64,000 nucleotides of DNA, taken from NCBI GenBank assembly GCA_964016885.1, contig OZ024740.1:56420001-56484000 (forward strand), written 5' to 3'. Positions 14,800-62,060 of the stretch are shown here, piece after piece; the stretch's first letter is position 1, and every line of letters starts with the position of its first letter. This stretch comes from Eledone cirrhosa (lineage: Eukaryota). Under the pieces are notes generated by a model. It saw nothing but the letters and a program-made list of their open reading frames with translations. It was not told the DNA's origin and searched no databases. The translations under genes were made by a program, and so were the position numbers.

Positions 14800-15025
14800 T
14801 AATAAATTTGAAATTTGAAGACTAAAATCCAAAGAGGGCTCGATAAGGATAAATATATATCAAATATATAAAAACCCTAGAGCAAATATTTATTAATATA
14901 ACAGATTAAAGTTTAAGCAAAGAAGCGCTTCTTTCACCCTTAACGGGATCTTCTGAAGATCCCATTAAGGCTGGAAGCAGCGATTCTTAGCTTAAACTTT
15001 AATCTGTTATTTTAATAAATATATA
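14800..15025. mobile_element. Palindromic PLE end folded at the hammerhead core (relatives at about 1300-1355, 29495-29605, 34385-34460)
   Basis: Arms about 14886-15022 centred on gatcttctgaagatc; GAAGA-tccc..ggg-tGAAA motif. Confidence 0.7.
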
Positions 15026-15514
15026 CTGTATATATATATATATATATATGTATGTTTATATATATTATATTACATTATAACATACTGTAATATTGTAAAA
15101 TCATAAATATTAGAGAGAGAGAAAGAGAGAGAGAGAGAGAGAGAGAGAGGGGGGGGGAGAAAGAAAGAAAGAGAGAGAGAGGCGGGGTGGAGAAATAAAG
15201 AGAAAAATGATGTTCACTTTTAGAATACTGGGAATACTTCCAGTCGTGTGAGTACTCAATACATATTAAGGTGGAGCGTAGACGTGACAGGAACGTAAAG
15301 CTCGGAGATAACTGAAACGGAATAGGCTCTCCGAAGTGCAGAAACCGACGTTTATGTATATATATATATATATATATATTATATATATATATATGTGTGT
15401 GTGTGTGTGTGTGTGTGTGTGTGTGTGTGTGTGTGTGTGTGTGTGTGTGTGTGTGTGTGTGTATATATAACGATATATATATATATATATATGTGTGTGT
15501 GTGTGTATCTTATA

Positions 15515-15767
15515 GTCGATCGACAAAATCCCAGGCCTCATTTGCTTAACGAGTGGAGTGGAGTTCGTCAAATCGGACCGAGGAAGCAATGTTTCCATTG
15601 GTCTTTCCAATTGCTAATACTATCAACCGGTTGCAAATCGAGGCAGAAGGACCAGCGTGAAATAAAATGTCTTGCTCAAGGACATAACGCATCGCCCGGT
15701 ACGGGAATCGAACTCACAACCTCATGATTGTGAATCAAATTCTCTAATCCCTCAGCCAAGCGCCTTC
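15515..15767 (-). mobile_element. tRNA-derived SINE family 2 (relatives at 46145-46325 and about 38650-38900)
   Basis: A box TGGCTGAGGGA, B box GAGTTCGATTCC, tgtccttgagcaagaca body. Confidence 0.7.
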
Positions 15768-16335
15768 ATATATATATATATATATGGGGGGGGGGGGGGT
15801 TGTATGTATTAGTGTAGATATCGTATGAGATAATTTAGTATAGAAAAAGAACATGTCTCCAATGGAACTCGAATCTCCTATTTATCGTACTTTATGCTAC
15901 AATTGGATGGTTTAGCATAATGTAAATTAATCTTTTCTGTTGTTCTTGTAATCATCACCTGAGTCTCAACGTAATTTCCATCGGCTAGTATCTTATCCAG
16001 CTATCATATTTTATAGTCTCTTCTTTGTACAACCTTTTCATTCGCATCATCAATCACAAAAAGTAGGGAAGACGGTATGCCTTTCTGAGAATTGACCACG
16101 AAGAAGAAGAAGAAGAAGCAGAAGAACCTTTTGCTAGAAATATATGTATAAAGAATTGCACAATTTATATAAATCTGCATATTGATCGTTCGAAAAGAAA
16201 CAGTGTTTTCTATAACACAGTGTTTCCTAAGGTTGGTTCTGTTGAAAACCAGGCTTTTATGAAAATAATCTGGAATTCTAGGCATTTTAATATTATGGAG
16301 ATGAAGTTAGACTGTCTAAGGAAATAAGTGCTTGT

Positions 16336-16408
16336 CAGAGTTTACAGGCAAAGCCAACCAACAGAAGTCCCAGAGTTTACTGGCAAAGCCAACCAACAGA
16401 AGTCCCAG
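16336..16408 (+). repeat. 35-bp tandem duplication
   Basis: cagagtttac(a/t)ggcaaagccaaccaacagaagtcc x2. Confidence 0.85.
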
Positions 16409-16509
16409 GGGTAGGTGGCCACAAGCATGATGGTTGGAAGAAGCAGAAGAAGAAGAAAAAGAAAAAGAAAAAGAAAAAGAAAAAGAAGAAATACATGAAT
16501 TTAACTCAC

Positions 16510-16635
16510 TTTTTACCTTGGAGCTCGGGACAGGAATTTTCAATAAGGGCAGCTAACCCAACAGCTCCAGCTCCTTCTATGATAGTTTTTTCTTGTTCCA
16601 CAAGTCTCAAAATGGCCAATGCAATGCTGTCTTCT
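16510..16635 (-). CDS. Threonine ammonia-lyase-like exon (EDSIALAILRLVEQEKTIIEGAGAVGLAALIENSCPELQGKK)
   Basis: ttcag|...|gtgagt; E.EK...EGAGA..LAA motif; 126 bp. Confidence 0.94.
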
Positions 16636-16871
16636 CTGAAATTGCATCCAATTTAATATTTCAATGTTTGGAATGACGATTTTTTAAATAATGTAAAAAA
16701 AAAAAATCTGTGATTGTTATTTCTGTAATAAATATTCTCATATTCGCTGAAAATGGTGGTGAACAACAGAACATCGAGTTACTACATGGTCGTTCAACCT
16801 GCTAGGTAGAACAATCAAATTTTATCCAAAATGCACCATATAATTTTATATAAATACAGATCACATTAAAT

Positions 16872-17190
16872 CAGGGGCGTGCAACAGGCGGCCTCCGGGC
16901 CACAATCCAGCCCGCCAGACAAGACAGAATGGCCCGCGATGACCGTTTTTAATTTTTACCTTGTAGGCTTACTTAGAATTTCTTTCGTAACCGTAATACA
17001 ATTTTCTATTAGTTGACCTATACTAAAGGGCTTCACTGATAGGGTTATGTGTGTTATAATTTTCAAGTTCCATGTTAGGGAAAGAAGTTGTGGTGAATCT
17101 TTGGAATAGTGCTTAATAAATATTAATGGCCCTAATAGTTGTTCCAATGTTCAAAAGTGGCCCGCCAATGGAATATGTTGCACACCCCTG
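16872..17190. mobile_element. hAT-type MITE
   Basis: TIRs caggggcgtgcaac / gttgcacacccctg; 8-bp TSD cattaaat / tattaaat. Confidence 0.85.
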
Positions 17191-58845: not shown

Positions 58846-58859
58846 AGTTTCAAACCGAG

Positions 58860-59037
58860 TTTCAAGACTTATCTTCGTTTCCAAAGTTCTGACACCATGG
58901 CTCTTCAGGAGGCCAGCGAGACTTACTTAGTTGGTCTCTTCGAAGATACCAACTTGTGCGCTATCCACGCCAAGAGAGTGACCATCATGCCCAAAGACAT
59001 CCAACTTGCCCACAGAATCCGTGGTGAGAGAGCTTAA
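58860..59037 (+). pseudogene. H3: Histone H3 C-terminal fragment (5'-truncated, mutated)
   Basis: [53 protein letters not shown]. Confidence 0.93.
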
Positions 59038-59430
59038 GATGTTACAACTTGGGTGTCTGTTTGATGCATACATACATACTTGCATACCTACATACATACA
59101 TGTTGATTGCTACTTTTCAGAAGTATACTTCCGAGACACACAAAGCTATTCACCAGTTAAAGTCCTTTTCCTCTCACAAAAATATCTGACTCCACATACA
59201 CATCCCCAATGGCTGGAGTGTACATGGACTTTGTCTTTGTTTGCTAAGATTTAGCCCAAATGCAGTGATTGTATTGGAGCGGGTGTACAATATCAATTAC
59301 ATGTCGTTTACTCTGTGAGCCACAAAATTTGCATCATCAGCATACAGGAACTCCCTGACAAGATTGCCAAATATTTTGGACCTAGATTTAAAACGTCTTA
59401 GATTAAAAACTTTGCCAGAGGTTCTAAATA

Positions 59431-59648
59431 GTGATTTCTAGTATAGGCACAAGGCCAGTAATTTGAGGGAAGGAGAAAGTTGATTAAATCGACCCCAGTA
59501 CGTTACTGGTGCTTTATTTTATCAACCCCGTAAAGATGAAAGGCAAAGTGAACCTCGGTGGGATTTGAACTCAGAAGGTAAAGGACCGTAACGCTATGAT
59601 GCAAAGCATGGTGTCCGACTCTACCGATATTGCCAATCCACCGCCCTT
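59431..59648 (-). mobile_element. SINE family 1 with 14-bp TSD
   Basis: agaggttctaaata at 59417-59430 and 59649-59662. Confidence 0.85.
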
Positions 59649-60244
59649 AGAGGTTCTAAATACTAAGAATTCTTCTAGTTCTGCAGAATTCATTTCCATA
59701 TGAAATAAATATATATCATCTGTACTAATCCACCAGGTATATATATAATATATATATATATATAATATATATTTATATATATAATATATATATATATATA
59801 ATATATATTTATATATATAATATATATATATATATATAATATATATGTATATATATATAATATATATATATATATATATAATATATATGTATATATATAT
59901 AATATATATATATACATATATAATATATATATATAATATATATATATAGTATATATATATATATAATATATATATATATATATAATATATATGTATATAT
60001 ATATAATATATATATACATATATAATATATATATATAATATATATATAGTATATATATATATATATATATATATATATATATAATATATATATATATATA
60101 TATATATATATATATATATATATATATATATATATATATATATATATATATATATATATATATAATATATATATATATATATATATATATATATATATAT
60201 ATATATATATATATATATATATATATATATATATATATATATAT

Positions 60245-60530
60245 ATCACATAAGAAACTCTCAGAATCAGTGGTGAGACGAATTACAATTTATTAGACAT
60301 ATTACAATCGTTTCTCTGGCGACCAGCTCGAGGCACGATCGAAGCAATGTCGAACCTGACTCTGAAATCGCAAGATCCTCAGATACGTCTCGATTCTTCG
60401 GAGCAGAGTTTTTAATTCATCGCACCACTGATTCTCCGTTTCTTATGTGATATTATACGCTGCTCTGAAAGAGCATCGAGTGCTCAAACGGCCTACCGCA
60501 TACGGACGCTTTAAGCACCCCACACCAATT
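60245..60530. mobile_element. PLE end with inverted arms (60245-60285 and 60414-60452), hammerhead and tail
   Basis: Inverted repeat seen directly, between (TA)n tracts. Confidence 0.75.
60296..60389 (-). ncRNA. Hammerhead with long stem II
   Basis: gacgtat-CTGAGGA-tct...aga-GAAA-CGATTG-TA-atatgtc. Confidence 0.7.
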
Positions 60531-61189
60531 ATATATATATATATATACATACTGTATATATATATATATATATATATATATATATATATATATATATATA
60601 TATATATATATATATATATATATATATATATATATAAAATTTCAGGTTATCAATAATGTAGTGATAATATAACGTTACTACTACACCAAATGACCAGCCC
60701 TGTCCACTGTCCAATTGGTCAAGTAGAGATTAAAATTGGCACTCCCAAAAATTCATATTTAGATAAAATGAACCATTTACTCATGGTATTCTCATTAGAA
60801 ACCCATTATATACTTGTTTAGCAGTAAATTGATTTACCATCTGTCATATACTATCCCCTATTTTTCTTCCTCTATTACTAATATAAATACTTCAATTTTT
60901 CTGATTTTATCCAATTTATCCAAAATCTCTGAAGAAGGGACAACTGATTATACATTTGCTATCGAATACTTGCTAACATTATATGATTACGCAAGCAGCG
61001 ATACATAGGTATTCCGTCTGTTACAGAAGCATATGTCAATACCTAATAAATTCCTTTTTAAAAAAAGCACTTTCATTTTATATTCATCCTTTCTATATAT
61101 ATATATATATATATATATATATATATATATATATATATATATATATATATATATATATATATATATATATATATATATATATATATAAT

Positions 61190-62060
61190 ATTAAGGATAC
61201 TACTTATAGTTATGTATATATTATACTATATACAACAATAAACAGGTAAGGTCAGTAATTTATTACTACCTTATTACCAGTAAAATAAATAGCTCAATGT
61301 AGGAACAACATTTGCTATACAGAGCAGTAATATAGAATACACAAGAATCAAAGCTATGTTAGAACATTCAATTGCTGACAATTGTTTCTTCCAAGCATAG
61401 GCTTGGTTTCTTCGGAGTATTATTAGCAATGTTTTTACATATACGTAGAAAATTCTAACAGCTCTACAAATGTAATATACGACACGGACTAAATAACACT
61501 ACGTTACTTTACAATACAAGCCATTACTATAACAAACACTCAATACAAATATATCGTGACAAATGTAATGGATGTGAAACCTGGAACTTTCTTATTCTGC
61601 ACACACGCATATTTGATCTACATAGAAGATATCTCTGCATTGAAACCACCATAATATAATAACAAACATGCTATAAGTGCTTGTATTTTATATGCCACAC
61701 CCAGCACTCATATATGCTTGATACTTTTGTTTGTTTAATTGCTTTATATGACTAACGCACGTACTGTCTCTTTAATTTTATTTATTTACTAGACGCTCTT
61801 GTATTCTCTGCCACATGTGCCCCAACAAAAGCTTTTAATTTTAATTTTGAATCTTATTGTACAATTTAGCATAATATATGTCGCATCCATCCCACACTGT
61901 TGTCCACAATATGTATCTGTATGATTCTTCAGCGGAATAGGAGGCTAATTATATGTATAAACATTGCTAATAATGGTCCGAAGACTACAAGCCTGGGCTT
62001 GGAAGAAACAATTGTCAGCAATTAAATGTTCTAACATAGCTTTGATTCTTGTGCATTCTA
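61190..62060 (-). mobile_element. PLE remnant with inverted pLTRs (61332-61436 and 61959-62060)
   Basis: Inverted repeat with CCGAAGA hammerhead variants; (TA)n flanks. Confidence 0.7.
61963..62022 (+). ncRNA. Variant hammerhead (CCGAAGA core); inverted mate at about 61371-61430 (-)
   Basis: attgct...CCGAAGA-caagcc/ggcttg-GAAA-CAATTG-TC-agcaat. Confidence 0.55.

Follow-up and report, generated by a model that had tools for sequence, protein, structure and literature searches.

How does a retrotransposon come to lie in a (TA)n run as two inverted arms, one carrying a 3' tail and the other stopping short of it? The question is raised by a 64,000 nt stretch of contig OZ024740.1 from the 3.0-Gb genome of Eledone cirrhosa (here called the window), in which (TA)n runs are abundant and a masked self-comparison revealed numerous short inverted duplications between them. 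Many of these short palindromes in the E. cirrhosa genome are Penelope-like elements (PLEs) of the Hydra clade. The sequences of their junctions show that their copies have two fixed ends, each located 5' of a predicted hairpin, and we consider it probable that they are inserted by two primings on one RNA, one for each nicked strand of the (TA)n target.

Throughout, S is the tail-less end and T the tailed end, and F and H numbers are the family labels of this analysis. Ends were detected using 18 family references in a sample of 1,244,000 bases (approximately 1.24 Mb) that consists of the window and blocks fetched without regard to their content.

Two fixed ends in each family

In the window, an insertion of the H1 family occupies positions 41157–43886 and is made up of an inverted tail-less arm (41157–41497) and a tailed arm (41497–43886). 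On the plus strand, site S (43774–43776) is a TAT that the element has in common with (TA)n, and it is found 6 nt before a hairpin, here hairpin 1 (43780–43820; TCTC-CGG...CCG-TC-GAGC). The 113 nt between S and T (43774–43886) are the tail, and a candidate hammerhead core pattern (CTGATGA...GAAA; 43622–43654) is present 119 nt before S. A second H1 insertion (20397–24079) has its tailed arm on the minus strand, with T at 20397 and the hairpin at 20463–20503, and a longer tail-less arm on the plus strand that reaches S at 24079. An earlier sequence-only reading of the window had proposed that tail-less arms stop at a TA a few nucleotides 5' of a hairpin. All nine of the junctions that it named were recovered to within 1–2 nt, and the two long H1 copies do end after the same base (24079 and 41157, each equivalent to 43773).

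When an H1 query ending before the junction was used, 19 of 30 loci lacked the tail, 17 of these ending at the exact base, and 11 had it, in a set where four loci come from the arms in the window itself and some represent both arms of one insertion. Anchored 340 nt upstream, 17/30 loci ended at S (one of them 3 nt late), 12/30 reached T and one was cut by another repeat. Across the sample, 301 ends were followed by (TA)n, with 148 at S, 145 at T and eight elsewhere. Four of these eight are F12 S ends offset by tail length and three are F2 S ends affected by alignment overrun, leaving one true mid-tail end. With the seven miscalled S ends reassigned, 300/301 ends are at S or T. Junctions were not spread over any TA available, as none of the 37 intervening TAs in H1 and none of the 395 upstream TA dinucleotides examined with the 301 ends had been used. 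Instead, the junction maps show the sharp peak a few nucleotides 5' of the hairpin that the earlier reading had expected.

One S arm and one T arm per insertion

Among 348 ends in the sample there were 104 neighbouring pairs that face away from each other. In 85 of these both ends belong to the same family, and 83 of the 85 are S/T, one is S/S and one is T/T. The F20 palindrome at 44175–44748 in the window, missed by the script, was added as a second T/T insertion, giving S/T in 83/86 (p = 3e-21 compared with one half). Palindromic insertions are for the most part, as had been described, one arm with the full tail joined to one short arm. The F20 palindrome, in which both arms are tailed and a Hydra-type hairpin is lacking, had already been singled out as an exception (44174–44750) and it remains one. 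Only two of the 19 mixed-family pairs lack a TA run between the arms.

The arms of a pair are frequently unequal. The 83 S/T pairs include 21 that are near-symmetric, 17 with the longer arm at S, six with the longer arm at T, 15 with little or no overlap, 21 that are ambiguous and three that were unassigned. Of 27 H1 centres, 17 have a longer S arm, six a longer T arm and four have arms within 9 nt of each other, where the partner's end type was assumed if it fell outside the locus and some loci are biased toward short T arms. Microhomology of 1–13 nt (median 2) is present at the joint in 22/27 H1 centres. As S arms hold sequence that is missing from the T arm, S must be a start on a sense template. 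The second priming event suggested earlier for the inverted arm is supported by S arms that often reach further 5' and by pairs that do not overlap. Near-symmetric centres are often found on self-complementary sequence, which is compatible with fold-back or with the joining of two cDNA ends.

Several symmetric centres coincide with the 5' boundary of the candidate hammerhead core, at 31345 and 34305 in the window and at F6, F7 and H1 loci in the sample (L018). These may mark a stop for reverse transcriptase (RT), a fold-back site or the 5' end of the RNA. In three H1 arms (L081, L085 and L023), the 5' end runs directly into another family's copy, through either a deletion of target sequence or a template switch.

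Hairpin 1 and the TA match at S

Hairpin 1 is common to 15 families. It has a basal stem of four pairs (RYTC:GARY), mostly a 2-base bulge on the 3' side and an upper stem specific to the family, and its general form is a bulged RYTC-stem-YH-GARY. The RCTC hairpin of the earlier reading is present, except that the basal stem of the long H1 family starts with TCTC. With the bulge fixed at 2 bases, 44/45 upper pairs and 57/60 basal pairs are formed in the 15 families, for which representatives and anchors were picked after the sequences had been seen. Slid controls formed 10–16/45 upper pairs, the mean for shuffles was 24.8 and 0/20000 shuffles reached 44. A strict descriptor of the hairpin returned 52 matches in the sample, of which 50 precede a microsatellite by no more than 120 nt. 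Eight tails folded as single sequences had weak z-scores (-2.07 to +0.49), and support for the hairpin therefore rests on covariation. The idea that the two ends of the tail pair and so place S near T was rejected, as the folds agree in H1, F2, F12 and F15 and not in F1, F7 and F18.

Of 138 S ends in hairpin families, 116 were kept and 22 were dropped because of poor end alignment or a non-TA flank. S is 4–9 nt 5' of the stem in 92/116. When TA sites were grouped by their distance to hairpin 1, those used were 71/168 at 4–9 nt, 4/63 at 1–3 nt and 7/389 at 10–40 nt; this set was anchored near S, and the unbiased check is the count of 301 ends given above. The match between element and TA run was at least 2 nt in 83/116 and at least 3 nt in 62/116, compared with 24% and 14% of simulated random joins in which run extension was allowed for. 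Microhomology at S is above chance, in agreement with the TA pairing proposed previously, and S sites mostly have a 2–6 nt TA match to the target.

In the F17 tandem unit (window 24138–24742) two hairpins were found, at 24168–24252 (with a 69-nt loop) and near 24645. Because another hairpin precedes it in this unit, the F17 end is probably a T-type site.

Hairpin 2 behind T

Ordinary insertions end at T, while tandem or full-length copies read on past it. In H1, F10 and F13 the read-through sequence has a TA or AT match at its start, and 8 nt on there is another hairpin of the hairpin 1 type (hairpin 2). In H1 tandem copies, TATAT comes directly after T, followed by hairpin 2.

Hairpin 2 was then predicted for eight further families and the whole genome was searched. 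For F1 there were 337 matches and none for the reversed control, and in the 100 matches listed T is followed by TAT and a hairpin 6 nt on. Hairpin 2 was found at 6 nt in 99/100 matches listed for F3 and at 8 nt in 15/16 for F12. It is intact at 6 nt in at least 11/48 F2 matches, the rest of which are deleted variants or chance. In all, hairpin 2 is present in seven families, in four of them (F1, F2, F3 and F12) by prediction. In these four the read-through runs on into an open reading frame (ORF) with an RW(R/K) motif, and both hairpins are therefore within the 5' untranslated region (UTR). The rule drawn in the sequence-only reading holds for the tail-less end but was incomplete, as the tailed end obeys it through hairpin 2 of the read-through copies.

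Relatives outside E. cirrhosa

Relatives with 31–39% identity are encoded in 80 metagenome loci. Among the 57 distinct relatives with enough 5' flank, two motifs precede the ORF in 31, one in 14 and none in 12. With the motif scored without any pairing criterion, the first upper pair was formed in 73/76 (C-G in 53 and T-A in 19; slid controls 2, 2 and 12) and the second in 50/76. TA peaks 6 nt upstream of the motif (33/75, compared with approximately 1 in 10 further out). Three T ends and one S end were mapped, 6–7 nt before the hairpin and with matches of 4–6 nt; two of these distances were read from the printed sequence, and another three rows proved to be internal repeats or spurious. Inspection by eye also revealed the motif in the published Hydra consensus sequences from coral and sea cucumber and less clearly in that from copepod (supplement of PMC8557442).

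Identity of the elements

The H1 ORF in the window (41432–42736, plus strand) is truncated at the 5' end and includes the RT thumb, a CxCx5C linker and, at its C-terminus, a GIY-YIG endonuclease. A complete 772-aa H1 protein is encoded in a tandem copy elsewhere, with a unit of 3596 bp. As read from motifs in H1 and its tandem copies, there is a single ORF with RT followed by GIY-YIG, and the endonuclease motifs are within the last 150 aa. A Pfam search of the H1 ORF gave no match. RWK, and DKT replacing DKG, are present (RRVRWKT and KADKTSN), the CxCx5C linker is CNCTYPDNC, the terminal CxxC and CxH are CKLC and CRH, and CCHH was not seen in the protein by eye. RWK, DKT, the CxCx5C linker and CxxC/CxH are among the Hydra-clade protein features listed in section 11 of PMC8557442. 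One homologue (P0038) is labelled Hydra vulgaris, and H1 inserts into (TA)n. The pattern of a hammerhead-ribozyme core at 43622 in H1, and in other families, marks a candidate ribozyme; among the matches listed for an Rfam search of the window (150 of 293) there was no ribozyme, only microsatellite look-alikes. Judged from the protein motifs, we conclude that the elements are Hydra-clade Penelope-like retrotransposons. The two long copies had previously been labelled Naiad. In Naiads the endonuclease is N-terminal, before RT, and as that of H1 is C-terminal the label was replaced.

Hydra-type RT or endonuclease sequence was found upstream of the F1, F2, F3, F7, F10 and F18 ends, and most of the short palindromes are thus likely to be truncated copies of autonomous families. 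A non-autonomous origin for F1, F2, F3 and F12 was rejected, as each leads into its own ORF. F4 and F4b are behind ORFs read as Neptune-type from their cysteine motifs. F4b forms a head-to-head array in block B6 (47554–66627; L156–L161), with three plus three full-length units approximately 4.1 kb apart, and its tail end reads on with TAT, without a Hydra hairpin.

Probable priming on one RNA and the alternatives

The probable route is two primings on a single RNA. A protein, perhaps a dimer, would bind both hairpins, and its endonuclease would nick the two strands of (TA)n, which is self-complementary. Each nicked 3' end would pair with a UA template of 2–6 nt located 6–8 nt 5' of its own hairpin, and RT would copy toward the RNA 5' end with one RNA as template and with strand displacement. 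The two cDNA ends would then be joined by microhomology to give a head-to-head insertion, whose tail would be the stretch between the two starts. As hairpin 2 would be present only in RNA that reads through into the next unit, this would explain the importance of tandem or circular templates. The earlier claim that the hairpin rule also explains (TA)n targeting was probably too wide, as the choice of target is more likely made mostly by the endonuclease. The high share of S/T pairs (83/86) and the scarcity of mixed-family joins are indirect indications that both arms come from the same RNA. For a Poseidon-clade PLE protein (anole), in vitro work has described cutting and extension of both strands, and starts at two internal sites that bound the tail (PMC11167929).

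A more specific version, which we hold only tentatively, is programmed double priming. Here an RT dimer would be docked on the two tandem hairpins of one transcript, each subunit setting one nicked (TA)n strand on a 2–6 nt UA template at a fixed distance, as telomerase does. If true, this rule would account for the inverted arm, for a tail that is optional and for the requirement for tandem templates, and the RT start could be set by shifting a hairpin of approximately 20 nt.

Several observations weigh against priming set by paired hairpins. Seven families without a Hydra hairpin still have two fixed ends, mostly with a TA(T) start; their tails are mostly 32–59 nt, and those of hairpin families are 65–277 nt. 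The lowest-energy fold of H1 lacks hairpin 1, and the pairing probability of the F1 hairpins is low (0.15–0.24). The modal S site of F6 has only a 1-nt match, and that of F16 is 2 nt from the stem. The whole-genome search returned no read-through copies and no hairpin 2 for F7, F15 and F16, and for F6 it gave no clear case. S/S or T/T arms are found in three insertions, and 178/348 ends are unpaired, with single-armed copies that have either end. Because the seven hairpin-less families keep two fixed ends, we conclude that the two-start scheme is general and that the hairpin pair appears to be the signal of the Hydra clade. As a single rule for all PLEs, the earlier proposal was too wide.

The same two hairpin-set starts could be used on two separate RNAs bound by one asymmetric dimer of the protein, a form of the dual priming proposed for L1 (PMC2837659). 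Arms that overlap by hundreds of bases would need strand displacement if made on one RNA, and there are two direct joins between arms of different families. However, a free choice of start on two RNAs predicts that approximately half of insertions would be S/S or T/T, and only 3/86 are. The two mixed-family joins compare with 85 same-family pairs, and both are S/S and explicable by later deletions. Two separate RNAs are, in our view, a doubtful source of the arms.

Alternatively, RT may start elsewhere and a hairpin-guided endonuclease may cut the copy at a nearby TA before it is joined to (TA)n. Craig et al. attribute the tail to endonuclease-mediated resolution (PMC8557442), and the Drosophila Penelope endonuclease requires the tail for recognition (as cited in PMC11167929). 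A TA-cutting enzyme would likewise leave TA microhomology, and the balance of G-U and A-C pairs does not clearly tell RNA hairpins from cDNA hairpins. Nevertheless, the two ends of the anole element coincide with the two RT starts measured in vitro (PMC11167929), and non-overlapping S/T pairs and single S arms are most simply explained by two starts. Trimming is, in our view, distinctly unlikely.

Finally, there could be a single priming at T, after which the cDNA primes itself and copying back goes on to S, where the polymerase is stopped by the hairpin and a TA match joins the product to the target. This finds an echo in the self-priming proposed for PLE palindromes (PMC3846280) and in the near-symmetric centres (21/83 pairs and 4/27 in H1, often at self-complementary sequence), but it needs a T arm whose 5' extent equals or exceeds that of the S arm. 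With S longer in 17 compared with six of the resolved pairs, and again in 17 compared with six H1 centres, and with little or no overlap in 15 sample pairs, it is highly improbable and was rejected as the sole route. Fold-back may act at the joining step.

Other insertions and repeats in the window

Further S/T palindromes in the window are those of F2 (14799–15019; hairpin 14838–14883, minus strand), F7 (31271–31476; candidate ribozyme core 31345, hairpin 31417–31436), F18 (49427–49847; candidate ribozyme core 49644, hairpin 49758–49785), F1 (50344–50540; hairpin 50390–50413, minus strand) and F15 (60247–60529; hairpin 60457–60481). S/T insertions of F1 (48189–48359; hairpin 48237–48260, minus strand) and F12 (61188–62058; hairpin 61292–61325, minus strand) are also present. 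The S/T palindromes of F4 (6642–6837), a family with a Neptune-type ORF elsewhere, and F8 (49864–50280; 39-nt tail) have no Hydra-type hairpin.

Three loci have been reinterpreted. What had been called a solo end at 46040 belongs to a two-armed F1 insertion (45969–46035) with non-overlapping arms, in which a tail piece, the tailed arm of approximately 34 nt, abuts the S arm. The supposed solo end at 48930 is part of a head-to-head join (48639–48926) between tail-less arms of two different families, F14 and F1. The region 4100–6140, listed as an exception, follows the rule, as the F5 S/T insertion at 4098–4963 has a variant hairpin (GTTT:GAAC) at 4512–4538 on the minus strand. F5 (window 4098–6140; block B6 74306–75198, L148) consists of tandem units, each of approximately 446 nt and containing a candidate ribozyme core, in which no ORF was seen. 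It is retrozyme-like, yet has S and T ends and the variant hairpin.

Elements inserted into TA runs beside earlier ones have produced chains of different families (6837–7207, 49847–50540 and 24079–24742). A dispersed repeat of approximately 150–250 nt, the size of a short interspersed element, is found in many copies, at 1454–1707, 10408–10634, 13717–13907, 14598–14736, 27492–27667, 50721–51566, 53720–54614, 57333–57436 and 59425–59648, and one copy interrupts an H1 element elsewhere (L187). Another repeat family is present at 2439–3669, 24847–25333, 34817–35373 and 62066–62775, with 2956–3669 and 62066–62775 sharing 93% identity. An RT fragment of the long interspersed element type is on the minus strand at 18313–18801. 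Beyond a gap of 200 Ns (63654–63853), an ORF that carries a CCCH-like motif begins in the sequence from 63854 onward, and an endonuclease-RT ORF comes after it in the next stretch.

Comparison with known systems

How PLEs form tandem or inverted insertions and the optional tail is a question on which in vitro experiments have been asked for within the field (PMC8557442). Our result supplies a short covarying RNA signal in two copies, together with a spacing rule and a template, for a clade found in several animal phyla, and the hairpin motif could serve as a marker for finding and orienting Hydra-clade elements. That the tail spans the interval between two RT starts, and that (TA)n is preferred, has already been published. 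A literature search, with subscription papers, Repbase notes and older Penelope papers outside it, returned no report of paired hairpins, of the spacing rule or of S/T pairing. Within the literature searched, hairpin 2 behind T, the hairpin pair, the spacing rule and S/T pairing are new.

With the Hydra clade as described in PMC8557442, the elements share the C-terminal GIY-YIG, RWK, DKT, the CxCx5C linker, the lack of CCHH and a candidate ribozyme core, as well as (TA)n targets, an inverted 5'-truncated copy and a tail at one end. The tails described there are 30–40 bp, whereas those of the hairpin families here are 65–277 nt and two conserved hairpins frame the ends; the words 'hairpin' and 'palindrom' do not occur in the main text of that paper. 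Naiads share the (TA)n targets, inverted arms and tail, but are described as having an N-terminal endonuclease and no canonical ribozymes (Craig et al. 2021, PMC8557442); the endonuclease here is C-terminal, and a candidate ribozyme core is present.

In Poseidon_Ac (Frangieh et al. 2024, PMC11167929), two RT starts bound the tail, both strands are cut and extended, a dimer is predicted and the start is marked by a stem-loop; the elements described here would resemble it in these respects. The Poseidon_Ac start falls within the ORF, in a stem-loop rich in AC, and is described as lacking homology to the cut DNA (PMC11167929). In contrast, both sites of the E. cirrhosa elements are in the 5' UTR, outside and 5' of a bulged hairpin that occurs twice, and have a 2–6 nt match to the target.

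As proposed here, L1 twin or dual priming involves a second nick at which an inverted cDNA is started from a site within the RNA, and the parts are joined by microhomology; in L1 the internal site is variable and sequence between the arms is deleted (PMC2837659). Here, both sites are fixed for each family and the arms usually overlap, with only 15/83 pairs lacking an inverted overlap.

PLEs are the closest relatives of telomerase RT. In telomerase, a related RT, a short RNA template pairs with the 3' end of a repeat and RNA structure sets the register. The elements described here differ from it in that no repeats are added, the structure would be on the 3' side of the template and copying extends over the entire element.

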